A stretch of 37,852 bases of DNA, taken from the IMG/VR virus record IMGVR_UViG_2531839583_000010, one strand, 5' to 3'. Made by a program: the position numbers and the translations under genes. Below are positions 1-36,918 of the stretch, one piece after another; the stretch's first letter is position 1, and every line of letters begins with the position of its first letter. The notes under the pieces are model-generated. The model worked only from the letters and a program-made list of their open reading frames with translations. It was not told the origin of the DNA and did no database searches. This DNA comes from a virus. Its lineage: Duplodnaviria > Heunggongvirae > Uroviricota > Caudoviricetes.

Positions 1-1053
1 TTACGGGGTAATGCCAACCGCTGCCGCCACTTTGTCGCCACTTGGCAGCGTTGCCAGAGGATTGAAACGGAGCGCCGTTTCCAGATGATCCGGTGCCAGA
101 TGTGCGTAACGCATCGTCATTTTTATATCGTGGTGTCCGAGAATTTTTTGTAAGGCCAGAATGTTTCCACCCGACATCATGAAGTGCGCCGCAAACGTAT
201 GGCGCAGAACGTGTGTGAGTTGACCGCGAGGGAGCACGATAGACGTTTTTTCCATCACGGATAAAAATTGAAAATAGCAGTCTGTGAAGAAATTGAACCC
301 ATCAAGCGCCATGATCTCTTCGTAAAGCTCTTTACTGATAGGGATGCTTCTGTTTTTCTTCCCTTTCGTTCTGACAAAGGTAATTCGGTATTTAGTCACC
401 TGTGAACGGGTAAGATTTATTGCTTCTCGCCAGCGTGCGCCTGTGCTTAAGCAGATCTTGACTACCAGTGCCAGAATTGGGTCCTGACGTTTGCAATCAG
501 CCAGCAATTCAACAATCTGTTCATGGGTAAGCCATGCCATCTCTTTTTCTGCGATGGTGAATTTTCGCATGTTCTCCAGTGGGTTCGGATACGACCATTC
601 GCCCAGGCGGGATAGTTCGCTAAAAACACTACTTAGATAGCTTTGCTCCAGGTTAACGGTGACCGGGCTTGCTCCTTTCTTCCATTTTTCGCTGAAGTAG
701 ATCTCTCCTGTCAGGCGTTTATCTCTATAGTGGGCAAACATTTTAGAGGTGAGATCGGTTGCAATGGGATTTCCCAGAGCGTCAACCATCAACAGCAATT
801 TGTCATAGACATGCTGCCCAGCCGTCAGAGATTTACCATGTAGTTTGAACCATAGCTCAACCACGTCTTTCAGTGTTCGACGATCCACTGATTCACCCAG
901 CCAGGGTTTTGCTTCGGTTTCTTCCATCGTGTGACGCTCAAAAGCCAGAGCTTCGCCTTTGGTGGCGAATTGTTTACGCACACGACGTCCACTACGTCCG
1001 GCGGGGTAACATTCGCAAAGCCATTTTCCTGTGGTGAGTTTTCGTACTGCCAT
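1..1053 (-). CDS. int: Tyrosine integrase (P2/186 family)
   Basis: 350-aa ORF; C-terminal region HVLRHTFAAHFMMSGG...HHDIKMTMRYAHL matches the tyrosine recombinase R-H-R-Y catalytic box; sits at the prophage edge. The last ~6 codons lie left of the att core. Confidence 0.9.
   Translation of the reverse strand: MAVRKLTTGKWLCECYPAGRSGRRVRKQFATKGEALAFERHTMEETEAKPWLGESVDRRTLKDVVELWFKLHGKSLTAGQHVYDKLLLMVDALGNPIATDLTSKMFAHYRDKRLTGEIYFSEKWKKGASPVTVNLEQSYLSSVFSELSRLGEWSYPNPLENMRKFTIAEKEMAWLTHEQIVELLADCKRQDPILALVVKICLSTGARWREAINLTRSQVTKYRITFVRTKGKKNRSIPISKELYEEIMALDGFNFFTDCYFQFLSVMEKTSIVLPRGQLTHVLRHTFAAHFMMSGGNILALQKILGHHDIKMTMRYAHLAPDHLETALRFNPLATLPSGDKVAAAVGITP
19..40. repeat. Putative attL core (cgctgccgccaCtttgtcgcca), inside the 3' end of int
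   Basis: 21 of 22 nt identical to 34988-35009, which lies immediately after the ogr stop; seen directly in the sequence. Confidence 0.45.
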
Positions 1054-7065: not shown

Positions 7066-9480
7066 ATGAGTCATGACGATATGAGCAACTCTAGCGGCTT
7101 TAACGAGGCCGCTACAGCATTTTCATGGAACGGCCCGAAAAAGGCCATTAACCCTTATCTGGACCCGGCGGAAGTTGCGCCGGAGTCTGCACTTTTAAAC
7201 CTGATCACTCTGTACGCTGCCGATAATGAGCAGGAACAGCTGCGCCGCGATGCACTGAGTGAGCAGGTCTGGGAGCGTTATTTCTTTAATGAATCTCGTG
7301 ATCCTGTCCAGCGCGAAATGGAGCAGGATAAGCTCATTAGCCGGGCAAAGCTGGCGCATGAACAGCAGCGTTTTAACCCGGACATGGTCATTCTGGCGGA
7401 CGTCAGCGCCCAGCCCACCCATATTAGCAAGCCGCTGATGCAACGTATCGAATACTTCAGCAGCCTGGGCAGGCCAAAGGCTTATTCCCGCTATTTGCGT
7501 GAGACGATTAAGCCATGTCTGGAGCGACTGGATTGTGTACGTGACAGTCAGCTGTCTGCTTCTTTCCGTTTTATGGCAAGCCATCAAGGGCTGGAGGGCC
7601 TGCTGATCCTGCCTGAAATGAGTCAGGACCAGGTGAAACGCCTGTCCACCCTGGTAGCTGCGCATATGAGCATGTGCCTTGATGCAGCTTGTGGCGATTT
7701 GTATGCCACCGATGACGTTAAGCCAGAAGAAATCCGCAAGACATGGGAAAAGGTGGCGGCGGAAACCCTGCGTCTGGATGTCATCCCACCTGCGTTTGAG
7801 CAACTCCGTCGGAAAAGAAACCGCCGTAAACCCGTACCCTATGAACTCATTCCGGGTTCGCTGGCGCGTATGTTGTGCGCCGACTGGTGGTATCGGAAAT
7901 TATGGAAGATGCGTTGCGAATGGCGGGAAGAGCAGTTGCGTGCTGTCTGCCTGGTCAGCAAAAAAGCATCTCCCTATGTCAGCTATGAAGCCGTGATGCA
8001 TAAACGTGAGCAGCGCCGTAAGTCGCTGGAGTTTTTCCGTTCTCATGAACTGGTGAACGAAGACGGCGACACGCTGGACATGGAGGATGTGGTAAACGCC
8101 AGCAGCAGCAACCCTGCGCATCGCCGCAATGAGATGATGGCCTGTGTTAAAGGTCTGGAGCTTATCGCGGAAATGCGCGGTGACTGCGCCGTTTTCTATA
8201 CTATCACCTGTCCGTCACGTTTCCATTCCACGCTCAACAACGGCAGACCCAACCCGACCTGGACAAATGCGACGGTAAGACAAAGCAGCGATTATCTGGT
8301 CGGCATGTTTGCTGCATTTCGTAAGGCAATGCACAAAACCGGGTTGCGCTGGTATGGCGTGCGGGTGGCTGAGCCGCACCATGACGGTACTGTGCACTGG
8401 CATCTCATGTGCTTCATGCGTAAAAAAGACCGCCGCGCCATCACTGCATTACTGCGTAAGTTTGCCATCCGTGTAGACCGCGAGGAGCTGGGCAACAACA
8501 CGGGGCCACGCTTTAAGTCTGAGCTGATTAACCCGCGCAAAGGAACACCGACAAGCTACATCGCGAAATACATCAGTAAGAACATTGACGGGCGTGGTCT
8601 GGCTGGCGAGATCAGCAAGGAAACGGGTAAATCCCTGCGTGATAACGCCGAATACGTTAATGCCTGGGCGTCTCTGCATCGTGTTCAGCAGTTCCGCTTC
8701 TTTGGTATTCCGGGACGTCAGGCTTACCGTGAACTTCGCTTGCTGGCTGGTCAGGCGGCAAGGCAACAGGGGGACAAAAAAGCAGGTGCGCTGATACTGG
8801 ATGACCCGCGCCTTGATGCCATCCTGGCTGCTGCTGATGCTGGTTGTTTTGCCACCTACATCATGAAGCAGGGCGGCGTACTGGTTCCCCGTAAATATCA
8901 CCTTATCAGAACCGCTTATGAAATCAACGAAGAGCCGACCGCCTATGGCGATCACGGCATTCGTATTTATGGCATCTGGTCACCCATTGCAGAGGGCAAG
9001 ATCTGCACTCATGCAGTGAAGTGGAAAATGGTTCGTAAGGCCGTTGACGTTCAGGAGGCGGTAGCCGACCAGGGCGCTTGCGCCCCTTGGACTCGTGGCA
9101 ATAACTGTCCCCTTGCTGAAAATTTGTACCAACAAGGGAAAGACAAATCAGCTGATGGGGATACCAGAACGGATATCACCCGTATGGATGACAAGGAGTT
9201 GCACGATTACCTGCACAGTATGAACAAAAAAGAACGCCGGGAACTGGCTGCAAGGTTACGCCTGGTGAAACCGAAACGGCGTAGAGACTACAAACAGCGA
9301 ATTACAGACCATCAACGACAGCAGCTCGTCTATGAACTGAAGTCCAGAGGATTTGATGGCAGCGAGAAAGAGGTCGATTTACTCCTTCGCGGCGGCAGTA
9401 TTCCGTCAGGAGCAGGCCTGCGTATCTTCTATCGGAACCAGCGTTTGCAGGAAGATGATAAGTGGCGGGATCTGTATTAA
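7066..9480 (+). CDS. A: Replication initiation protein A (rolling-circle nickase, P2 gpA-like)
   Basis: 804-aa ORF downstream of the early genes, in the position and size of P2 gene A. Confidence 0.8.
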
Positions 9481-9573
9481 TTACGCGGGTTAACAATTCG
9501 TGCTCTTAATAATACCAGGCATATCAGGCTGATGAACGTAAAAAAAACGTTTTACATCAGTAAGATTATTATA

Positions 9574-9593
9574 TACTGTAAATATAAACAGTG
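9574..9593. promoter_or_regulatory. LexA (SOS) box CTGT-N8-ACAG
   Basis: tactgtaaatataaacagtg: CTGT at 9576-9579, 8-nt AT spacer, ACAG at 9588-9591; about 45 nt upstream of ORF 9635. Confidence 0.6.
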
Positions 9594-9634
9594 GTTATGT
9601 GTACAGTATTGCTTGTGGTGTCATAGGAGGAAAA

Positions 9635-9823
9635 ATGCAGGACTATTTTTTGGAGTCTTTGAAGCTCCAGCGCATTGATTTTTTTCTTAAGCTTGTAGCG
9701 GCTAGTGAGTGTAGTGATGAAGAGAAGGGGCTGGCTCTGCAGTGGGTTTCTGAATTGACTGATGAACTCATGGCAAAAATCAGAAGCCACGAATACAACC
9801 GCTCAATGGATGTCATCAGCTGA
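9635..9823 (+). CDS. Hypothetical protein, first ORF of the SOS-controlled tum-like module
   Basis: 62-aa ORF with GGAGG Shine-Dalgarno; directly downstream of the LexA box. Confidence 0.45.
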   Translation: MQDYFLESLKLQRIDFFLKLVAASECSDEEKGLALQWVSELTDELMAKIRSHEYNRSMDVIS

Positions 9824-9833
9824 GGTGACTTTT

Positions 9834-10067
9834 ATGCGCATTGAAATAATGATCGATAAAGAGCAGAAAATTAGCCAGTCTACCCTGGACGCCCTTGAAT
9901 CCGAGCTTTACCGCAATCTGCGCCCCCTGTATCCCAAAACGGTAATTCGTATCCGCAAAGGTAGCTCTAACGGTGTGGAACTGACCGGACTGCAACTGGA
10001 CGAAGAAAGAAAACAAGTGATGAAAATTATGCAGAAGGTGTGGGAAGACGACAGCTGGCTGCATTAA
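9834..10067 (+). CDS. DinI-like protein (Tum C-terminal-domain-like antirepressor module)
   Basis: MRIEIMIDKEQ...LDALESELYRNL...KIMQKVWEDDSW parallels E. coli DinI (MRIEVTIAK...EILQETWESADDW); GAGGTG Shine-Dalgarno upstream. Confidence 0.7.
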   Translation: MRIEIMIDKEQKISQSTLDALESELYRNLRPLYPKTVIRIRKGSSNGVELTGLQLDEERKQVMKIMQKVWEDDSWLH

Positions 10068-10572
10068 GAAACGTTGCTGGCGTCTGAACTTGCTTCTGGC
10101 GTCAGCAAGGTTGAATAACGAGCTGTGCGAGGCGTTAGCCATCTGATCAAAAGACATCAAATATCATATTGTATATCGTGGTCAAACGCTGGAAACAATC
10201 ATTCCCGGTCAGAGGGGCTTCTTTCAATGTCTAAAAGAGTGAGATAGAGGATACAGGATGGGAAGAGCTTATGATGATTGTTCTTGGATTGACTTGGAAT
10301 ATTTGATGTCCATTATCTAATGGACTTGGTCTTGATAGTTATCACGAAAGAGGAAGCCAACGTCATGTATTTGAAGAGTATCTCTTACCTTTTGATTAAT
10401 TATTGTCCAAGTTTTTCAAAAGCTTCTTATCTGGCGGTCGATACATGATTTACTGTTGGATATGGTATTTAAAATTAATCTTTACACTGTGGTATATGCA
10501 GAATAGGATATTATCAATACAATCAAACTGTTTTCATACGGTTGTTAATATTGCAATGTTATAGGTAATGTC

Positions 10573-11691
10573 ATGTATCTTTTCAAGTATTACCGTCCGG
10601 ACTTCTTCTTCGAGAAAGCTATTCGTTATAATGAATTATATTTTTCCGCTCCTGCGCAATTGAATGATCCTAATGATCTCAATATAGATTATCGTTTTGA
10701 TAATAAATTGAAATTATGAGATATTTTATTGCGTTCTCCTTGCGATAAATCCTATAAAAATTTGAGTCACATATTAGATTTGAGTAATTTGAAGATACAT
10801 AAGGGATTGAATCGTATTTTTAGAGGAAAAAAAATAAAAAGTAGCATTGAGTCATTAGATAGCCTGTTTGACTCACACGTTGATGAGATACGTAAGATCA
10901 TAAATGATGGTTTACTACCTATCAATGTGATTAATTCCGCTATTTATGGGAATATTCCTGAACCACGCCAATTTTTGGTCTCACTTTGCGAGAACAGTAT
11001 CAAAGAAAGGTTGTATAGGAAAATAGTTCCTGCAGTATTCAGTGTGTCATTTTCAGCTAATGCGTTAGATCGTATGATGTGGGCGCATTATGCTGCAGGC
11101 TTTAGTGGTTGTGTTGTGATTTATGAAACGCAGGATTTTAATATTAATGGCGTACCACATCCTGGAATGAAGTTAAGAGAAAATTTATTTTCATCAGATA
11201 AAATTAATTTTCCAGTTAAGCCAATAAAATATAGTAATCAAGCTAAAGAGGTTTCACTTCTAGACCCAAGCGCAAATGTTGCAGAGTTATTTTTAACTAA
11301 AAATAGATTTTGGAGATATGAAGCTGAATATCGAATGTTTATTCCAGAGGCAAATGCAGGAATAGGGAGTGAGCGGCATGTTCAAAGACACGTAAATCGA
11401 AATATTGGACATGTTTTTCATCATGATGCTAATGTTGTTAAAGGGATCATTTTTGGTCCTAGAATGTGTGAAATGAAAAAAGAAAGCATATGGAATTGTA
11501 TCAAGTCAAATATGGAGAATTCAAATTCAACAATATGTTATTTTTTTGACTCTGAGTTATCAGCATCAGGAAAGATTACTATTTCAAAAGGGCAACGAGC
11601 GGAAAAAATGAAAAATTTCCCTTTGTTCAGGAACAAGTTAAGTCAGACGGAAATGGCTAAAGTTTTGAAGGAAATTGGCATTACGAACTAA
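10573..11691 (+). pseudogene. DUF2971-like gene interrupted by an in-frame TGA (10717-10719)
   Basis: ATG 10573 encodes YLFKYYRPDFFFEKAIRYNELYFSAPAQLNDPND (DUF2971 N-motif as recalled); a TGA follows; the same frame continues to 11691 and contains MWAHYAAGFSGCVVIYE and RFWRYEAEYR (DUF2971 core motifs). The track ORF 10729-11691 starts at a TTG. Confidence 0.55.
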
Positions 11692-11756
11692 CCTAACAAC
11701 AGTGCATGCCTATGCTGCCTGAATTTGCATGACCGTTTGAGGATCGTTTTTGCTAA

Positions 11757-11781
11757 GGCCCGCCAGAACTGGCGGGCTTTT
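11757..11781 (+). terminator. Rho-independent terminator candidate
   Basis: ggcccgccag-aa-ctggcgggc followed by tttt; GC stem plus T-run downstream of the DUF2971-like gene. Confidence 0.6.
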
Positions 11782-11826
11782 GCGTGGATCAGGCACCTGC
11801 ATGAAAACCACTACACAAAGCGGGCA

Positions 11827-11845
11827 GGCGTGGCGGGGATACGAG
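11827..11845. other. Putative cos (cohesive end) site, ggcgtggcggggatacgag
   Basis: The first 13 nt match the recalled P2/186 cohesive end (GGCG[A/T]GGCGGGGA...); it sits in a short GC-rich island between two AT-rich cargo genes. Assigned from memory of the P2/186 cos sequences. Confidence 0.4.
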
Positions 11846-11978
11846 CGCGCGTTATGACAAATAGATGATTAGCCTGATTTATTTACAGCTGTATAAATGA
11901 TCACCTTGTAATTAGGTAAGTAATGTCTTCTATTATCATTGATTTGATAGGATTAATCTGTTTTTTGAGGATTAGAGG

Positions 11979-14315
11979 ATGATTGAAGAGGTAGTTATTG
12001 ACAAGGTAGGCTCATATAATGGCCCTACGCAGCTTTTACATGGACTTTCTAAATTTAACTATTTATATGGAGCTAATGGTGCAGGTAAAACAACTATAAG
12101 TAAAATTATTAATGACCCTGAACAATATCCAACATGTCCGATTAAATGGAAAAATAATATATCTTTAATAAGCTACGTATATAATAAAGATTTTGTTGAA
12201 AGAAATTTTAGTCAAGATAAAATTAAAGGTGTATTTACCCTTGGTAGCGATCTTAAGGAGGATGAAGAGAAACTAATATCTCTTAAAGAAGAAAAAAATA
12301 AGCTAATGGAATCTATTATAGCAAAGGAAAAGTTAATAGATGGTGGTGATAATGAATTAGGCGTTATTAAAAAAATCGAAGACCATGAAAAATCTTTTAA
12401 AGATTCATGTTGGAAGCAAAAAGTAAAACATGACAATGTGTTCTCAAAGGCTTTTGAGGGATTAAGGAATAGTAGTGAAAAATTTAAAGCCAGAGTGTTG
12501 GCTGAGTATGAAAATAATACATCAGAAGTTTGCTCAATAGCAGAGTTAATTGAGAAAGCAAAAATTGTTTTTTCTACTGAATTGACATCACATGTATCAA
12601 TTACAATTCCATCCTTCAATGGGATAGATGATATTTTGAGTAGGGAAGTTTGGAGTGAGCGTATCCTAGGGAAAAAAGACGTTAGTGTTTCAGACTTAAT
12701 TACAATGCTCAATAACAGTGATTGGGTTAAGGAGGGTTTAACATATTTCAGTAAATCTAATCCCAAGTGCCCATTCTGCCAGCAGGATGTAAATGATAAT
12801 ATATTTGATAATCTTTCATCATATTTTGATAAAACATATGAGTTAAAAAAAAGAGAAATCGATGCATTGGTTTTACAATATGAATATCAACTTAATAATA
12901 TCTTGAAGGCGATAGATGATATAAGGGCGATTAAATCTCCATTCATAAATTATGAAGTGTTTGAGGATAAGGCTAAGATAGTATTATCTGAATTAAACAA
13001 GAATTTTGAATTGGCAAAAAATAAACGCAATTTTTTAAGTGAATCAGTTCATTTTAGTGACTTAAGTGAAGTTGTTGATGATTTTATTTCTTTTTTGAAT
13101 GATTCAAATCTATTGATAGATAATAATAACAAAATACATAGTAATAGAAAGGTAGAGGCTAGTAATCTTTCTAAGCAGATATGGGCATATATCGTAAAGG
13201 TGGAGTTAAAGTCTGAAATAACTTCTTACCGTAGCAAATCTGATAAGTTTAATAGGACGTTACAAGGACTTAAATCTGGGATAGAAGAAGACAAAAAGAA
13301 GTTAATGTTAAATACTTCGGCTATTGAGGCAATTGAGTCTAATAAAACCAGTACTCTTCCAACTATTACAAAAATTAACAAGATTCTGGACTCTTATGGC
13401 TTCAAAAATTTTTACTTAAAACCCTCCGAAGATAAAAAGCATTATATGATAGTGAGAGATAGTGGAGATAATGCTCGTACAACCCTTAGTGAGGGAGAAA
13501 AGACATTTATCACTTTTTTGTACTTTTATAGCCTTGTTAGAGGGAGTGATAATGCATCAGGTGTTTTAGATGATCGTGTTGTAGTATTTGATGATCCAAT
13601 TTCAAGTTTAGATAGTGATATTCTGTTTATTGTAAGTTCGTTGATTAAAGATTTAATGGAGGATGTTCGTAAGGATGAAGGAAATATTAAGCAAATTATA
13701 TTCCTTACTCATAATATTTATTTTCATAAAGAGTTGACTTTTAATACCAAAAGATCCGGTAATCAAGCAATGAAAGAGGAGACTTTTTGGATTGTAAGGA
13801 AAAAAGGGAAGGTTTCATATCTTGAAAAGTGCGAATCAAACCCAATAAAAACGTCTTATGATTTGCTCTGGTGCGAATTGAGAAGAACAGACATTAATAA
13901 TAATACTATACAAAATACAATGCGAAGGATTTTGGAGAATTACTTTAAGATATTAGGTGGGATGGATATTAGGAAGCTTGAGTGTCATTTTTATGGTGAT
14001 GAAAAAATCATATTTAAATCTTTAGTGTCATGGATTAATGATGGTTCCCATTTTGCAGGTGATGATCTTTATATGAATTTAGATACGGAGTCTGTGCAAA
14101 AATATTTAATTGTTTTTCAGAAGATATTTGAATGTAGTGAGCATACTGCCCATTACAAAATGATGATGGGTGAGTTTTATAAACCGTTAAATGAGTCACT
14201 TCATCTACAAGATGAGTTTGATATAGATGATAGTGCGAATGATGAGTATGCTTCGTCAAAAATTGAGATAAAAGATGGAATAAACACATCTCTACATAGC
14301 AACACATATTTGTAA
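11979..14315 (+). CDS. RloC-like ABC/AAA_13-type ATPase with coiled-coil CxxC hook and C-terminal HEPN-like (R-x4-H) domain; candidate anticodon-nuclease-type defense protein
   Basis: Walker A GANGAGKTT (aa 31-39, nt 12069-12095); CPFC (aa 264-267, nt 12768-12779) inside a K/E-rich predicted coiled coil; LSEGEK signature (aa 503-508); Walker B/D-loop VVVFDDPISSLD (aa 534-545); RKLECH (aa 665-670, nt 13971-13988). AT-rich. Confidence 0.6.
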   Translation: MIEEVVIDKVGSYNGPTQLLHGLSKFNYLYGANGAGKTTISKIINDPEQYPTCPIKWKNNISLISYVYNKDFVERNFSQDKIKGVFTLGSDLKEDEEKLISLKEEKNKLMESIIAKEKLIDGGDNELGVIKKIEDHEKSFKDSCWKQKVKHDNVFSKAFEGLRNSSEKFKARVLAEYENNTSEVCSIAELIEKAKIVFSTELTSHVSITIPSFNGIDDILSREVWSERILGKKDVSVSDLITMLNNSDWVKEGLTYFSKSNPKCPFCQQDVNDNIFDNLSSYFDKTYELKKREIDALVLQYEYQLNNILKAIDDIRAIKSPFINYEVFEDKAKIVLSELNKNFELAKNKRNFLSESVHFSDLSEVVDDFISFLNDSNLLIDNNNKIHSNRKVEASNLSKQIWAYIVKVELKSEITSYRSKSDKFNRTLQGLKSGIEEDKKKLMLNTSAIEAIESNKTSTLPTITKINKILDSYGFKNFYLKPSEDKKHYMIVRDSGDNARTTLSEGEKTFITFLYFYSLVRGSDNASGVLDDRVVVFDDPISSLDSDILFIVSSLIKDLMEDVRKDEGNIKQIIFLTHNIYFHKELTFNTKRSGNQAMKEETFWIVRKKGKVSYLEKCESNPIKTSYDLLWCELRRTDINNNTIQNTMRRILENYFKILGGMDIRKLECHFYGDEKIIFKSLVSWINDGSHFAGDDLYMNLDTESVQKYLIVFQKIFECSEHTAHYKMMMGEFYKPLNESLHLQDEFDIDDSANDEYASSKIEIKDGINTSLHSNTYL

Positions 14316-14326
14316 TTTTATTACAA

Positions 14327-14356
14327 TTGCCAGTAGCAACAATACGGTACTGGCAA
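14327..14356. terminator. Hairpin between convergent ATPase gene and Q (ttgccagta-N12-tactggcaa)
   Basis: Perfect 9-bp inverted repeat with a 12-nt loop in the 49-bp gap between convergent genes; AT-rich stem, so strength is uncertain. Confidence 0.35.
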
Positions 14357-14364
14357 CTAATATT

Positions 14365-15396
14365 TTAGTTAAGCTCATATGGAGAAAATTCTATAAGTTT
14401 TTCCCCGAGCCATGCATTAATTTCTCTAAATCGTTTTTGCAAAGGAATTAATTCATTTATCACAAAAACCTTACTAGCCTTCTCCACATCCCCAAACCCC
14501 CCGACATTATTAGGCATAATCCCCATCATTTGCGGTGGAACGCGGTGTGCCGCCATCATGTCATCGCGACTAACATTTTTGATATTCAGAAACTCATCCT
14601 TCGCTGCGACTTCTGATAACGGGATAATCTGAAGCCCGTCCTTTTTGCCGTTAGGTGAGTACATAAACAGGTTGCGGAAGTTGCCCGGCCCTTTGGCGCT
14701 TTTCATCGCATTGCGGAGGTTGTTCACATCCTCCTGGTTTTGCGCGGCATCGGTCATGTACATGATAAAGCCCGCATGACTGCCGTTAATGTAATACTTG
14801 CGACGGAACAGCGTGGCGGACTCGTTGAGCAGGGCTGACGGAATGGCAGAAAGATAACCGGGCAGGCCGTAGATCTCCTGATTAATATCCGGTTCCATCA
14901 GATGAAAAATGCTGCCTTTCGTGAACTGATACGGCTGGGGTGTCATACCGTATTGCACAAACCAGTAGGTATCCAGGTCTAATCCGCGTCGGGTGTATTT
15001 TGCCAGCGCAGGTTCAAGGGCGATCACTTCACCGAAGCGGTTCGTGCGTTTCTCCAGATAGGCGTTGCCAAATACCAGATAGTCCTGCACAAAACGCGAA
15101 AAAGCCTGCTGGCTGAGCAGAGGATGAGGGATATAGGTACTGGTCAGAATGTTGCACTTTACTGCAATCGGGGAACTGTGATGCACGGCAGCGCGGAAGG
15201 TGCGCGCCAGTCCGTCAAAGCTGACGGGCGGCTCATACCAACGGTCCATCTGTACGCATTCCACATAGTCCAGTAATTCTCGGCGGTCCAGAACAGGAAC
15301 GGGATCGCCGAAGCTGAATGCTTCGGCTGAAGTTTGGTTTTTATGCTGGATCTGATTCGTCGCCGCAGTGCGGTTTTTCTTATTCTTTCCCATCAA
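14365..15396 (-). CDS. Q: Portal protein (P2 gpQ-like)
   Basis: 343 aa (P2 Q is 344 aa); adjacent to and co-oriented with the terminase large subunit. Confidence 0.9.
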   Translation of the reverse strand: MMGKNKKNRTAATNQIQHKNQTSAEAFSFGDPVPVLDRRELLDYVECVQMDRWYEPPVSFDGLARTFRAAVHHSSPIAVKCNILTSTYIPHPLLSQQAFSRFVQDYLVFGNAYLEKRTNRFGEVIALEPALAKYTRRGLDLDTYWFVQYGMTPQPYQFTKGSIFHLMEPDINQEIYGLPGYLSAIPSALLNESATLFRRKYYINGSHAGFIMYMTDAAQNQEDVNNLRNAMKSAKGPGNFRNLFMYSPNGKKDGLQIIPLSEVAAKDEFLNIKNVSRDDMMAAHRVPPQMMGIMPNNVGGFGDVEKASKVFVINELIPLQKRFREINAWLGEKLIEFSPYELN

Positions 15397-17159
15397 AAAA
15401 TCTCCACAATATTGCTGGTATTGGCGGACTCGCCCTGCAGCGGTTCGTTAAACAGTGCGTGCATCGTTGCCCAGGCCAGATCGGCGTGGCTGGCTTCTTC
15501 GCTGCGGCTGGCTTCATAGGTTGGGCGGTTGCCACTGGCGGTGGTTGCGCGACGGATTGCCATAAATGACTGCGCAATGTCGGTGTGCCCGGCGTCAAAC
15601 TCCAGACGGCGGTGGCTGATAATGTCGTAGGCCTTGAGTACCAGGGCGTTTTTAACGTTGGGGTTGTAGACAAACTCCCGGACGGCAGGAAAGAACGCTT
15701 TCACGTTCTCGTAAACCCCGTGACCAACGCCGGTTGAGTCGATACCGATATAAGTCACGTTGTACTGCTCGGTAAGTTTTTTGATGGCGTCAGCCTGGGC
15801 GCGGAAGTCCATCCCGCGCCACTGGTGACGCTCAAGAATGCGGAACTTACCACCCGGCACGGCTGGCGGTGCCACCACCACGCATCCGGCGCTGTCGCCG
15901 TTTTGCGTACCTTTTGCCGGGTCATAACCGATCCACACTTCGCGCCAGCCAAACGGGCGCAGCGCCAGTGCATGAAAGTCGGTCCAGATTTCCCAGCTGT
16001 CTACCATGCACGCCTGCAGCTCGCTGAGAGGGAACACGGACGCGAGATCGTCCACAAACTCGCACATCAGCAGGTTCTGGTATTCGTCCGGGCTGTACTC
16101 CATGCGCAACTGGTCAAGGTCGAACAGGTTACAGCCGCCGCGCACCGCATCTTCCACGGTGACTATCTGGCGGTATTGCCCGTCTGCGCACAGCAGGCCG
16201 GGGGCCAGATTGCTGTGGGACAGGTCGATGTCCACCTTATCGGCTTTGTTGCGCCCACGGTTGAACAGCGCACCGGACCAGAACGGATAAGCACTGTGTG
16301 TCAGACTGGATGGCGTGGAAAAATAGGTTTGTCGCCATTTTTTGTGAATAGCCATACCGGAAGCCACTTTGCGCAGTTCCTGGAATTTCGGTATCCAGAA
16401 ATATTCATCCAGATACAGGTTGCCGTGGTAACTCTGGGCCGTGCGGGCATTGGTGCCGAGAAAGTAAAGCGTGGCCCCGTTAGGAAGCACCATCGGATCG
16501 CCTTTCAGCTCCACCTCCACTTCTTTGGCAAAGTCGATGATGTACTGTTTAAAGACGTGAGCCTGAGCCTTGCTGGCAGAAAGGAAAATCTGGTTACGCC
16601 CGGTCAGCAGGGCGTCAATCAGGGCTTCACGGGCAAAGTAAAAGGTCGCGCCGATCTGGCGAGACTTCAGCAGGTTGCGGATGCGATTGGTTTTTCCGGC
16701 TTCCCACCAGTGGCGCTGGTAGTTGAACATGGAGGAATGGAAGATTTCTTCCAGCTTCTCAATCTGTTCATCGGTGAAAACATTCTTTTCCGGCTGACGG
16801 CGCGGGCCTTTGTTGCGGTTGGCGACGTTAGGGTTTAAGTCGGCTTCGTTGCCGCCATTGTTAAACTTGCCGATGCGCGCGTGGCGCTCCGACTGGCGCG
16901 CCAGCAGGTCAATCTCTTTGAAATCTTTCCCTTCTTTGTGCTCCTTCATAATGAGCTGGCAGTAGCGTGCGGCGGTGGTGAGCTGCATCTGATCCAGCGG
17001 CCCATAGTCACCCCACTTGTCGCGTTTTTTCCAGCTATGAACGGTTGCAACTTTCTCGCCCAGCATTTCAGCAATGCGGGCGACGCGGTATCCCTGAAAG
17101 TACAGCAGCATGGCCTGCCGACGGGGATCGAGATCTGCGGGGGTCAGTGTGGTGTTCAT
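15393..17159 (-). CDS. P: Terminase ATPase (large) subunit (P2 gpP-like)
   Basis: 588 aa; position and size match P2 P; divergent from the O-N-M-L operon. Confidence 0.9.
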   Translation of the reverse strand: MNTTLTPADLDPRRQAMLLYFQGYRVARIAEMLGEKVATVHSWKKRDKWGDYGPLDQMQLTTAARYCQLIMKEHKEGKDFKEIDLLARQSERHARIGKFNNGGNEADLNPNVANRNKGPRRQPEKNVFTDEQIEKLEEIFHSSMFNYQRHWWEAGKTNRIRNLLKSRQIGATFYFAREALIDALLTGRNQIFLSASKAQAHVFKQYIIDFAKEVEVELKGDPMVLPNGATLYFLGTNARTAQSYHGNLYLDEYFWIPKFQELRKVASGMAIHKKWRQTYFSTPSSLTHSAYPFWSGALFNRGRNKADKVDIDLSHSNLAPGLLCADGQYRQIVTVEDAVRGGCNLFDLDQLRMEYSPDEYQNLLMCEFVDDLASVFPLSELQACMVDSWEIWTDFHALALRPFGWREVWIGYDPAKGTQNGDSAGCVVVAPPAVPGGKFRILERHQWRGMDFRAQADAIKKLTEQYNVTYIGIDSTGVGHGVYENVKAFFPAVREFVYNPNVKNALVLKAYDIISHRRLEFDAGHTDIAQSFMAIRRATTASGNRPTYEASRSEEASHADLAWATMHALFNEPLQGESANTSNIVEIF

Positions 17160-19213: not shown

Positions 19214-19864
19214 ATGAGCCTGAGTCCCGCACGGCAGCATCGCCTGCGCGTTCAGGCTGAACAGGCCGCCCGCGAGGGCGGCAGTGTTCGCCACGCATCG
19301 GGCTATGACCTGATGCTGCTGCAACTGGCGGAAGACCGCCGCCGTCTCAAGGGCGTTCAGTCCACGGTCAAAAAAGCGGAAATCAAGGTGGAGCTGCTGC
19401 CGAAGTACGCCGCCTGGGCAGAGGGTGTCCTAGCTGCCGGAGGCGCTCAACAGGATGACGTGCTGATGTACGTGATGCTGTGGCGCATTGATGCCGGAGA
19501 TTATGCCGGGGCGCTGGAGATCGGGCGTCATGCCCTGCGTCATGGTTGGGTGATGCCGCTGGGTAACCGCAACGTGCAGACCGTGCTGGCAGAGGAAATG
19601 GCAGACGCCGCGCAGAGCGCAATGCTTGCTGCCACCGGCTTTGATGCCGATCTGTTGCTGCAGACGCTGGAGCTGACAGACGGTCTGGATATGCCGGACC
19701 AGTCACGGGCGCGTCTGCATAAAGCGATTGGCGCTGTCCTGAGTGAAAGCAATCCGGCTTCCGCCCTTAATCATCTCAACCATGCGTTACAGCTCGATCC
19801 CCGCTGTGGCGTGAAAAAAGACAAACAGCAGCTGGAGCGCAGACTGCGCAATGACAGCCGCTGA
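19214..19864 (+). CDS. M: Terminase endonuclease (small) subunit (P2 gpM-like)
   Basis: 216 aa; synteny. Confidence 0.8.
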   Translation: MSLSPARQHRLRVQAEQAAREGGSVRHASGYDLMLLQLAEDRRRLKGVQSTVKKAEIKVELLPKYAAWAEGVLAAGGAQQDDVLMYVMLWRIDAGDYAGALEIGRHALRHGWVMPLGNRNVQTVLAEEMADAAQSAMLAATGFDADLLLQTLELTDGLDMPDQSRARLHKAIGAVLSESNPASALNHLNHALQLDPRCGVKKDKQQLERRLRNDSR

Positions 19865-34688: not shown

Positions 34689-34778
34689 TTCTTCGCAATG
34701 GAGAACTTTTAAGTTTGCAAAATGGAATAATGCGGTATCATTATTGTGAATTTAGCAAAAATGGGGAGAACACGAAAA

Positions 34779-34997
34779 ATGATGATTTGCCCACTGTGTG
34801 GAAGTGCCGCCCATACTCGCAGCAGTTTTCAGGTATCTTCATTGACCAAAGAGCGTTACAACCAGTGCCAGAACATTAACTGCAGCCATACTTTTGTTAC
34901 CCATGAAACTTTTGTTCGTTCGATTGCAACGCCAAAAGAGTCAAATCCGGTTCAGCCGCATCCAATGAAATCAGGACAGGTGGCGCTCTCTCTTTGA
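34779..34997 (+). CDS. ogr: Ogr-type zinc-finger late transcription activator
   Basis: MMICPLCGSAAHTRSS...CQNINCSHTF matches the P2 Ogr C-x2-C...C-x4-C zinc-finger pattern; last phage gene before attR. Start could be 34779 or 34782. Confidence 0.85.
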   Translation: MMICPLCGSAAHTRSSFQVSSLTKERYNQCQNINCSHTFVTHETFVRSIATPKESNPVQPHPMKSGQVALSL

Positions 34998-35009
34998 CGC
35001 TGCCGCCAT
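34988..35009. repeat. Putative attR core (cgctgccgccaTtttgtcgcca)
   Basis: Direct repeat of 19-40 with one mismatch; begins within the ogr stop codon. Confidence 0.45.
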
Positions 35010-35232
35010 TTTGTCGCCATCGTTAAAAAACAGTGCTTCTAACATCATGATTTTAAACAGCTTAAATTTCAGGCAACAAAAAACCCATCAACCTTGAACC
35101 GAAATGGCGGGGGTGATGGGCTCCACAAAATGGGGACATCAAAGAAAAGCAGTGGCACTAATTAAGACTGATGCCCTGCGGAAAAGTTCTGCGGTTGTGC
35201 AAAAAAATTTCATTTTCAGGGCAACTTCAGTT

Positions 35233-36918
35233 TTATCCTAATCCTGGCCATACCATGACGATGATTGTCCCTGCCAGCGTCAGCAGGACGTTGGCGATTG
35301 CATAGGTGCCCGCATAGCCCAGCGCCGGGATGTTACTGCGAGCTGTATCACTGATGATCTCCATTGCCGGCGCGCAGGTACGTGCGCCCATCATTGCGCC
35401 GAACAACAGCGCGCGGTTCATTCGCAATACATAAGCACCGAACAAGAAACAGATAACCACGGGCACCAGACTGACAATCAATCCGGCAATCAACATCTGA
35501 CCGCCAATCGCGCCCAGGCCGTTATTAATACCGCTACCGGCGCTCAGACCAACGCCTGCCATAAACACCATCAAGCCGAACTCTTTCACCATGCTTAATG
35601 CACCCTGCGGAATGTAACCGAAGGTCGGGTGGTTAGCACGCATAAAGCCCAGCATAATTCCGGCGAATAACAACCCGGCAGCGTTCCCCATGCCGAAACT
35701 GAATGTGCTGAACTGGAAGGTGATCATCCCGATCATCAGCCCAATAACAAAGAAGGCGCAAAATGCCAGCAGGTCAGTGACCTGGCTGTGAATCGAGATA
35801 AAGCCGATGCGATCGGCGATGGTTTTTACGCGACGGGCATCACCGCTGACTTGTAAAACGTCACCTTTGTTAAGCACGACGTTGTCATCTATCGGCATCT
35901 CAATCTGGCTACGAATGACGCGGTTAAGGAAGCAACCGTGATCGGTCAACTTCAGTTGTGCGAGACGTTTACCTACAGCGTTATGGTTTTTAACGACCAC
36001 TTCTTCAGTGACGATACGCATGTCGAGAAGGTCACGATCGAAAACTTCTTTACCGTTACGGAAGCTGGGATCGAGTCGGGCATGGGCGTCGGGATAGCCT
36101 ACCAACGCTATTTCATCGCCCATTTGTAGCACGGCATCACCGTCTGGATTTGCCAGAATCCCGTTACGTCGAATACGTTCAATGTAGCAGCCGGTTTGTC
36201 GATAAATACCCAGTTCACGCAGATTTTTGCCGTCGGTCCAGGCCACCAGCTCCGGGCCGACGCGATAGGCGCGGATCACCGGTAAATAAACCTTACGGTT
36301 GGCATCAGTGTCCAGGCCACGTTCGCGGGCGATTTGCTGGGCGCTGGTCTGTAAGTCCTGATGCTGCAATTTCGGCAAGTAACGCGCACCAACAATCAAA
36401 CTCACCAGACCGATTAAATAGGTTAAGGCATACCCGAGGCTCAGATTATCCAGTGCCAGTGAGAGCTGCCTGCTTTCCATGCCGGAATGACGCAGTGTAT
36501 CGCCAGCACCGACCAGAACCGGTGTCGACGTCATAGAGCCTGCTAACATACCGGCCGTCAGGCCAATATCCCAGCCAAACAGCTTACCTAACCCTAAGGC
36601 GATCACCAGCGCACTGCCAACCATCACCAGTGCTAACATTAGGTAATTTTTCCCATCGCGAAAAAAAATGGAAAAAAAGTTCGGTCCGGCTTCAACCCCA
36701 ACACAGAAAATAAACAGCATAAAGCCAAGATTAAGCGCATCGGTGTTAATGCTGAAATGTTGTTGGCCTAATAACAGCGATACGACTAAAACGCCAATGG
36801 AATTACCCAGTTGAATCGAACCAAGTCGTAACTTTCCGAGACATAGCCCAAGCGCGAGGACCACAAATAATAACAGAATGTAATTCCCATTTAACAATTC
36901 GGCGACGTTTATATTCAC
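35233..36918 (-). CDS. ybjL: Putative transporter YbjL (AAE-family membrane protein with central TrkA-C-like domains)
   Basis: 561 aa; multi-TM N- and C-halves around a soluble middle; matches recalled E. coli YbjL and the ybjL-ybjM-grxA neighbourhood. Confidence 0.8.

Follow-up and report, generated by a model that had tools for sequence, protein, structure and literature searches.

The stretch of DNA analysed here (hereafter the window) is the viral record IMGVR_UViG_2531839583_000010, 37,852 nucleotides assigned to the Caudoviricetes, and the element in question is a short GC-rich island within it, flanked on both sides by AT-rich cargo. Comparison with related phages makes it very probable that this island is the cohesive-end site (cos) of an apparently intact Fels-2-like prophage of Escherichia coli, in the P2 family (Peduoviridae), with swappable cargo on each side. 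The features that bear on this reading are given below, numbered from the first base of the window.

11701–11851, plus strand: conserved cos block, 151 bp between its homology edges, the sole backbone sequence between the two cassettes
11797–11851, plus strand: counterpart of the 55-bp cos core of P2 and P4, made up of 30 bp, the 19-nt overhang and CGCGCG
11827–11845, plus strand: predicted 19-nt cohesive end GGCGTGGCGGGGATACGAG, placed by homology to the cos of P2, 186 and SEN8
11703–11709, 11716–11722 and 11726–11732, plus strand: TGCATGA-like direct repeats R1, R2 (TGCCTGA here) and R3
11755–11781, plus strand: GC-rich hairpin with TTTT (stem 11755–11765 and 11770–11780, loop 11766–11769)
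11789–11795, plus strand: repeat R4, inverted, TCAGGCA here and TCATGCA in most relatives
11798–11804, plus strand: repeat R5, TGCATGA
10140–11700, plus strand: left cargo cassette, between the DinI/Tum-like gene and the block, which would lie at the right end of the virion DNA
10573–11691, plus strand: DUF2971 gene, interrupted by TGA at 10717–10719
11852 to ~14364, plus strand: right cargo cassette, starting 6–7 bp past the overhang, which would lie at the left end of the virion DNA
11979–14315, plus strand: AAA_13 ATPase gene, 778 amino acids, full length
14327–14356: right-cassette hairpin with a 9-bp stem, between the convergent ATPase and portal genes, replacing the ancestral portal terminator

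The 19-mer ggcgtggcggggatacgag at 11827–11845 of the plus strand is the sole match in the window even when three mismatches are allowed (0.01 expected by chance). Mapped 19-nt ends are annotated in the records of P2 (GGCGAGGCGGGGAAAGCAC) and 186 (GGCGTGGCGGGGAAAGCAT), and when the circular junctions of P2, 186 and P4 were rebuilt from the record ends and aligned without gaps over 56 positions, the window agreed with P2 at 40, with 186 at 43 and with P4 at 44 of them, P2 and P4 agreeing with each other at 52. The window row reads ctgcatgaaaaccactacacaaagcgggca, GGCGTGGCGGGGATACGAG and cgcgcg, and the 186 row ctgcattaaaaccgacccataaagtgggca, GGCGTGGCGGGGAAAGCAT and tgcgcg. Within the overhang the identities are 14/19 to P2, 15/19 to 186 and 14/19 to P4; the first 13 bases are those of 186, whereas the last six are TACGAG in place of the AAGCAT or AAGCAC of P2 and 186. 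Both the 30-bp left flank and the GCGCG right flank of the P2, 186 and P4 sites are kept. The earlier note had remarked on a resemblance to the P2/186 cohesive end, and the alignment (40–44 of 56 positions, 15 of 19 overhang bases to 186) establishes clear homology over the cos junction. A 55-bp core around the P2/P4 overhang is attributed to Ziermann and Calendar 1990 (PMC3931495, PMC5694545, PMC9594776). The top strand is predicted to be nicked 5′ of 11827 and the bottom strand after 11845; cleavage in P2 and 186 has been mapped, whereas that in the window is a prediction from homology. The order of gene A, cos and a portal gene on the opposite strand is also that of P2 and 186, with the same terminase and portal families.

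Closer counterparts are found among deposited phages. An identical 19-mer is annotated as cos in the record of Salmonella phage SEN8, a phage isolated as particles whose deposited sequence begins at the 19-mer, and the SEN8 cos has been published with this sequence, assigned by homology (PMC5427200). Escherichia phage Cartapus, a deposited phage genome, has the 19-mer inside an annotated putative cos, and Smp131 has an 18/19 variant as its genome ends, placed there by analogy with P2. The 55-bp core of the window, including the 19-mer and CGCGCG, is identical in SEN8 and Cartapus, and the left flank is ~87–98% identical, whereas the cargo genes that follow cos and precede the portal gene are different.

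The limits of the block are sharp. The earlier note had described a GC-rich island of about 120 bp at 11738–11860 between stretches of AT-rich cargo. The contrast in composition is real, with 57.6% GC across 11701–11851, 33.6% in the left cargo, 30.6% in the right cargo and 55.2% in the late-gene backbone, but the limits do not stand: homology gives 11701–11851 (151 bp), which moves the left edge outward by 37 bp and the right edge inward by 9 bp, to exactly 6 bp past the 19-mer. Block homology in 86 phage records begins at 11701–11704 and ends at 11851, and in a profile built from 49 distinct sequences of many genera, conservation climbs steeply at 11702 and falls away abruptly after 11851. 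CGCGCG follows the 19-mer in 40 of 40 listed junction prefixes, these being viral loci chosen on the 19-mer alone. Among 5,426 complete E. coli genomes the block is present at 80–100% identity in 1,249 and at 99% identity or more in 26. A scan of 9400–14600 against Rfam with E up to 1 matched no RNA family, and the island thus gives no sign of a known structured RNA.

Since the cos of P2 and 186 lies 187–196 bp from the portal stop codon, a portal-proximal position is the textbook expectation, and it might be supposed that the virion ends lie elsewhere, for example at 14316–14364 beside the portal gene, and that the island is a mere terminator or insulator. We regard this as scarcely credible. 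The interval 14316–14364, which the earlier note had itself named as the place where the ends might map instead, was tried as an alternative cos and rejected: its sole feature is an AT-rich hairpin that moves together with the right cassette, it shows nothing similar to a P2-family cos, and it lies inside the stretch that is replaced in relatives with other right cassettes, so that the site at 11827–11845 is upheld on sequence. The window has a single copy of the cos motif, at 11827, and more than 500 bp separate the motif from the portal gene in 110 of 125 loci, including the isolated phage SEN8. No other cos-like sequence was found in the window; the other matches to the 13-mer have at best two mismatches and number five where 1.65 are expected, a slight excess that 3 of 100 shuffles reach.

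Conservation around the predicted cos is one-sided. TGCAT stands at −124, −111 and −101 from the nick in P2, 186, P4, SEN8 and Midge. Copies at −36 (inverted) and −29 are seen in 186, Midge, SEN8 and 813R9, and P2 and P4 have the −29 copy; the window has the motif at −124, −101 and −29, where ~0.25 occurrences would be expected per 130 bp. R1–R3 are strongly conserved across genera, and we propose that all five repeats are terminase recognition elements. On the opposite side of the overhang only 6–7 bp (CGCGCG) are conserved. SEN8 and Cartapus carry unrelated cargo from 7–8 bp past the overhang, and sequence beyond about +7 therefore seems unneeded, which would make the ~180-bp cos-to-portal spacer dispensable; the left virion end thus seems free of sequence requirements, and the position can tolerate replacement.

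R2 and R4 form an inverted pair, both TGCCTGA in the window where the family consensus is TGCATGA, and the paired changes keep complementarity. The same change is seen in four distinct DUF2971-linked sequences of the alignment, which were counted as one event. It may be due to chance, to coupled substitutions in a site bound by protein, or to a stem formed at long range.

The hairpin between the repeats consists of the inverted repeat ggcccgccag-aact-ctggcgggc followed by tttt (TTTT at 11778–11781). Its folding energy of −23.4 kcal/mol (z = −3.9) was equalled by none of 200 shuffled sequences, which bears out the earlier description of a strong hairpin. Its core, GCCAG-N4-CTGGCG, is kept in the Fels-2 group, and an inverted repeat is similarly placed in 186 and P4; the TTTT after it is common, not universal, among relatives. 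The stem core is conserved in sequence, the outer pairs are often mismatched in relatives, and covariation is neutral on an RNA role. To judge from its sequence the hairpin is likely an intrinsic terminator for rightward transcription toward cos, and as such it would stop transcripts from the DinI operon or the left cassette before they entered cos and ran antisense to the genes that come next.

These features may be assembled into a provisional mechanism. After induction and circularisation, the terminase gpM/gpP would recognise the block and introduce staggered nicks, leaving 19-nt 5′ overhangs of sequence GGCGTGGCGGGGATACGAG. Recognition would lie almost wholly on the side of the future right end, in ~125 bp that hold five phased TGCATGA-like repeats and the GC hairpin. 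The spacer on the other side has usually been replaced by cargo in this lineage, and a capsid size limit may favor replacing it over keeping it. A second slot lies to the left of the block, after the DinI/Tum-like gene, and the cos core would act as the crossover point. Virion DNA cut in this way would have the start of the ATPase gene ~150 bp in from its left end and the end of the DUF2971 gene ~135 bp short of the right-end nick; the earlier placement of the two cargo genes at opposite virion ends is thus borne out as a prediction, given a cos at 11827–11845 and an integrase at the left edge of the window.

Two better known sites offer a comparison. The cos of phage lambda (cosQ–cosN–cosB) combines a staggered nick and a 12-nt overhang with accessory recognition sequences outside the nick region, and cosB, the main terminase-binding site, lies on the left, first-packaged side of the nick. 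The conserved flank in the window lies instead entirely on the right-end side, and the overhang is 19 nt (lambda being taken from the textbook account). P4 is closer: its AT-rich accessory region (gop/beta) begins ~7–10 bp after the overhang, where CGCGCGC gives way to divergent sequence, and its TGCAT repeats and GC hairpin lie across the nick, as in the window. P4 is a satellite without packaging genes of its own, whereas the window prophage encodes them.

On the right of cos, P2 and 186 have a non-coding spacer of ~165 bp with a terminator before the portal gene, where the window has a 2.5-kb cassette. The slot is empty in four relatives (L050, L055, L060 and L063), in which a GC-rich spacer of ~180 bp, including a terminator hairpin, separates cos from Q, as in P2 and 186. 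The cassette replaces the entire cos-to-portal spacer, its terminator and the last portal codons, and homology to relatives with other right cassettes resumes at 14377–14417, inside the 3′ end of Q. The last 4–17 portal codons vary by cassette (14365 to ~14417), and because they differ between cassettes, the portal C-terminus travels with the cargo. Of 98 distinct right cassettes, 86 share only 6–9 post-overhang bases with the empty site and none shares more than 13; at the other edge, homology to the empty site resumes 2–109 bp inside Q in 93 of the 97 that could be aligned.

Edges this sharp might be expected from dedicated site-specific insertion, for instance at an integron-like site beside cos, since a left junction at +6 to +9 in 86/98 cassettes and replacement of the whole spacer in 93/97 are tighter than random insertion in 180 bp. 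We nevertheless consider such a system very unlikely, and it was rejected for want of a recombinase or a fixed junction: the junctions vary, from +1 to +13 on one side and from 2 to 109 bp inside the portal gene on the other; no repeated motif was seen at the cassette ends; the single annotated cargo genes inspected (ATPase, DUF2971, KAP NTPase, AIPR and DUF4062) are not recombinases; and Pfam and PADLOC scans of the two window cargo genes returned no recombinase.

The ATPase is assigned to Pfam AAA_13 (E = 2e-163) and, among PADLOC candidate families, to PDC-S06 (E = 2e-266), and its cassette is present in 21–26 of the 5,426 complete E. coli genomes. The left protein matches PADLOC candidate family PDC-S31 and is a weak match to Pfam DUF2971 (21.7 bits, just under the cut-off of 22). 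By these matches both cargo genes belong to candidate anti-phage families. NCBIfam naming gave neither protein a name, and a literature search for PDC-S06, PDC-S31 and DUF2971 returned nothing useful. Given the TGA at 10717–10719, the left gene is probably inactivated, or expressed only from a TTG at 10729. Its cassette occurs in 27 of the 5,426 complete genomes, and is missing in four relatives (L007, L013, L014 and L016) where 10139 joins 11701 almost directly; in relatives with this empty left slot, the stop codon of the DinI/Tum-like gene lies 206–208 bp from the start of cos.

The behavior of the two slots was followed with a BLAST of 15 related loci against the window and a wider comparison of ~175 related loci. 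In the 15 loci, backbone homology stops at 10065–10139 and restarts at 11700–11704, then stops again at 11851 and restarts at 14377–14417. The right slot is filled in 110 of 125 scored loci (537–3,550 bp from cos start to portal stop) and the left in 74 of 103; among the 74 loci that could be scored for both, 52 have both filled, which makes the arrangement in the window the most frequent one. In complete E. coli genomes the ATPase cassette is accompanied on the left by nothing, by two hypothetical genes, by a KAP NTPase, by DarT with a macro-domain gene, or by DUF2971, and the DUF2971 cassette is accompanied on the right by a 1.7-kb hypothetical gene, a DUF4062 gene, an AIPR gene or the ATPase. 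Across 157 loci, which are not phylogenetically independent, 83 left types and 123 right types occur in 143 combinations. The earlier note had suggested that cargo was inserted independently on the two sides, and these partnerships agree with it, as each cassette is found with several others. The two window cassettes occur together in 1 of 5,426 E. coli genomes, where ~0.5 would be expected under free assortment. The comparisons thus support the view that cos splits the gpA–gpQ interval into two independently assorting slots, and because genes on opposite sides assort freely, they should not be read as partners.

E. coli E2 (L005), the one complete genome that shares both cassettes, differs from the window at 25 bases over the 1,119-bp DUF2971 gene, and two genomes with another right cassette carry a closer DUF2971 allele (10 differences in EC13). 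The combination of DUF2971 and ATPase may, on these alleles, have arisen more than once. The sequence to the left of cos in the window is identical to that of all DUF2971 loci and the right flank is identical to that of all ATPase loci. The ATPase loci have a different cos-left haplotype from that of the window, and the switch falls between 11817 and 11851, inside the cos core. A breakpoint in the core fits the published idea of cohesive-end exchange (see below), and ordinary homologous recombination in a short identical segment is equally compatible with it. Because the recognition sequence is one-sided, ~100 cassettes start within 13 bp of the left end and the switch falls in a 35-bp core, the gpA–gpQ hotspot may be construed as two slots pinned to a one-sided cos, with cohesive or terminase-cut ends, rather than general homologous recombination, as the main route by which cassettes are shuffled between co-resident P2-like phages; we offer this tentatively, and lean somewhat away from it.

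Foreign genes in this interval have a long history. Surveys of thousands of genomes have covered the gpA–gpQ interval, which is the classical P2 hotspot, old/tin (PMC9122126, PMC9519451, PMC13586616, bioRxiv 10.1101/2024.10.15.618418). Rousset et al. (2022) placed the hotspot directly adjacent to cos and speculated that cohesive ends drive exchange (PMC9122126). The window cassettes resemble the defence hotspot described there and by Vassallo et al. (2022, PMC9519451) in lying between A and the portal gene and in being AT-rich, variable and matched to candidate defence families. Those papers treat the interval as one hotspot, whereas in the window cos stands in the middle of it and two slots are seen; P2 itself has only the A-to-cos side filled (old, tin), whereas the window has both. 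The cos-to-gpQ position has been called a hotspot in its own right, with reference to retrons Ec67/Ec86 and work on phiCTX and with ORF1–4 of phage RSY1 (PMC5694545). In Ec67/Ec86 of a 186-related prophage, in ctx of phiCTX and in ORF1–4 of the Ralstonia phage RSY1, foreign genes lie by cos with DNA replaced, and the window is the same in this respect. A 1996 paper by Dodd and Egan reportedly, going by its title, found that the Ec67/Ec86 replacement halted at a transcription terminator. Set against what that title says, the window goes further, in that the exchange takes in the portal-side terminator and the final codons of the portal gene, and the incoming cassette supplies a hairpin of its own.

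A cos site with flanking cargo is thus already described, ordinary and very common in this phage family, and the novelty implied by the earlier note does not survive, the arrangement being known and the commonest state in the lineage. In the gpA–gpQ and cos papers that were consulted there is no statement that cos splits the interval into two freely assorting slots, that the right junction falls within 13 bp of the nick, or that the conserved recognition sequence is one-sided, though such statements may exist elsewhere. Current understanding is unchanged, and a well-described hotspot is refined. For annotation, the predicted physical ends of the virion are fixed, and the two cargo genes are assigned to separate slots rather than to one operon or defence system; guilt-by-association in the gpA–gpQ hotspot calls for care with genes on opposite sides of cos. 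The comparison also amounts to a natural deletion map of the P2-family cos, with ~125 bp conserved on one side of the overhang and 6–7 bp on the other, which would be useful in the design of cosmids and transducing particles and in testing the idea of cassette exchange at cos ends.

The rest of the window is in keeping with a P2-like prophage. The genes to which the argument refers are as follows.

1–1053, minus strand: integrase, its open reading frame stopping at base 1 of the window
7066–9480: replication gene A
9834–10067, plus strand: DinI/Tum-like gene (Pfam DinI, E = 7e-23), the final backbone gene ahead of the left slot
14365–15396, minus strand: portal gene, P2 Q homologue (Pfam Phage_portal), with the place and orientation to cos seen in P2 and 186
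15393–17159, minus strand: large terminase subunit, P2 P homologue (full-length Pfam Terminase_5, Terminase_6N and Terminase_6C)
19214–19864, plus strand: small terminase subunit, P2 M homologue (Pfam Phage_term_smal, full length)

The gene order is that of a P2 prophage, with scaffold O, capsid N, small terminase M and head completion L on the plus strand, followed by tail genes, D and Ogr. The genes for the portal, both terminase subunits, scaffold, capsid and head completion are full length with full-length family matches; the large subunit P is the expected cos-cutting enzyme and the small subunit M the expected cos-recognising one. The nearest DNA relatives are Fels-2, SopEPhi, RE2010, SEN8 and many Klebsiella and E. 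coli prophages. The prophage is estimated at ~35.2 kb, bounded by a host permease gene, which equals the size of the viable phage SEN8. Its last gene is Ogr-like (34746–34997); in the region beyond (34998–36918) lies the host Asp-Al_Ex/TrkA_C permease gene, at 35233–36918 on the minus strand. As the integrase reading frame runs to base 1, the left attachment site is presumably outside the window, which contains no tRNA gene. A perfect LexA-box consensus (CTGT-N8-ACAG, CTGTAAATATAAACAG) lies at 9576–9591, upstream of a small open reading frame and the DinI/Tum-like gene, an arrangement that resembles the annotated SOS-controlled p95–tum arrangement of phage 186 and suggests, by its sequence, that the prophage is SOS-inducible.

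Several points weigh against the island as a working cos, or against parts of the account given here. The cos annotations of SEN8, Cartapus and Smp131 are all homology-based, and the 44 loci from genome_contigs were picked by an exact 25-mer, so that 11827–11851 is perfect there by construction. A terminase role of the repeats is proposed from their conservation. For the hairpin, a consensus terminator scan missed it, the T-run being only TTTT and then G (it went unlisted because that run is short and partly absorbed into the stem), and the terminator annotated in 186 (t95b) is found upstream of that phage's homologous hairpin. R2 and R4 each carry a substitution in the window haplotype, and codon 49 of the DUF2971 gene is TGA where three close relatives (E. 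coli E2, EC13 and ARL09/232) have TGG (Trp49); together these changes may point to some decay of the prophage.

Altered repeats beside a gene with a premature stop are also what would be seen if the block were a cos-derived relic in a prophage that no longer packages. We think this improbable, given that the packaging and head genes are full length, that the core and the 19-mer are identical to those of SEN8 and Cartapus, that the block is at least 99% identical in the 26 complete E. coli genomes noted above, and that the prophage is as long as SEN8. The same haplotype is moreover joined to at least four right cassettes in the loci examined, suggesting continued spread and recombination. The preferred reading of the block thus remains that of a cos in an apparently intact prophage.

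Some minor observations concern the ends and the wider distribution of the motif. Contig ends were considered as evidence for physical ends and set aside, because most matches in viral_contigs derive from prophages and have cos in their interior; a pair of short Escherichia sp. contigs that stop 40 bp to the left of cos was read as an assembly break in a repeat and not as a physical end. No P4-type psu homologue lies beside this cos variant in the 175 loci. The record of the 186-like Escherichia phage Midge (PV287706; L187/L188) is opened in the middle of the 19-mer, ending in GGCGTGGCG and starting with GGGAAAGCAT, and its depositors evidently placed the termini inside this motif. Outside the Enterobacterales the exact 25-mer (the 19-mer with CGCGCG) was found in Pasteurella testudinis (L038) and at eight Chitinimonas loci (L022–L025, L028, L046, L049 and L057). 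Two Chitinimonas species have several copies of the 25-mer per genome, some without a recognisable Q or A homologue nearby, and these copies could belong to other element types that share the same packaging signal.

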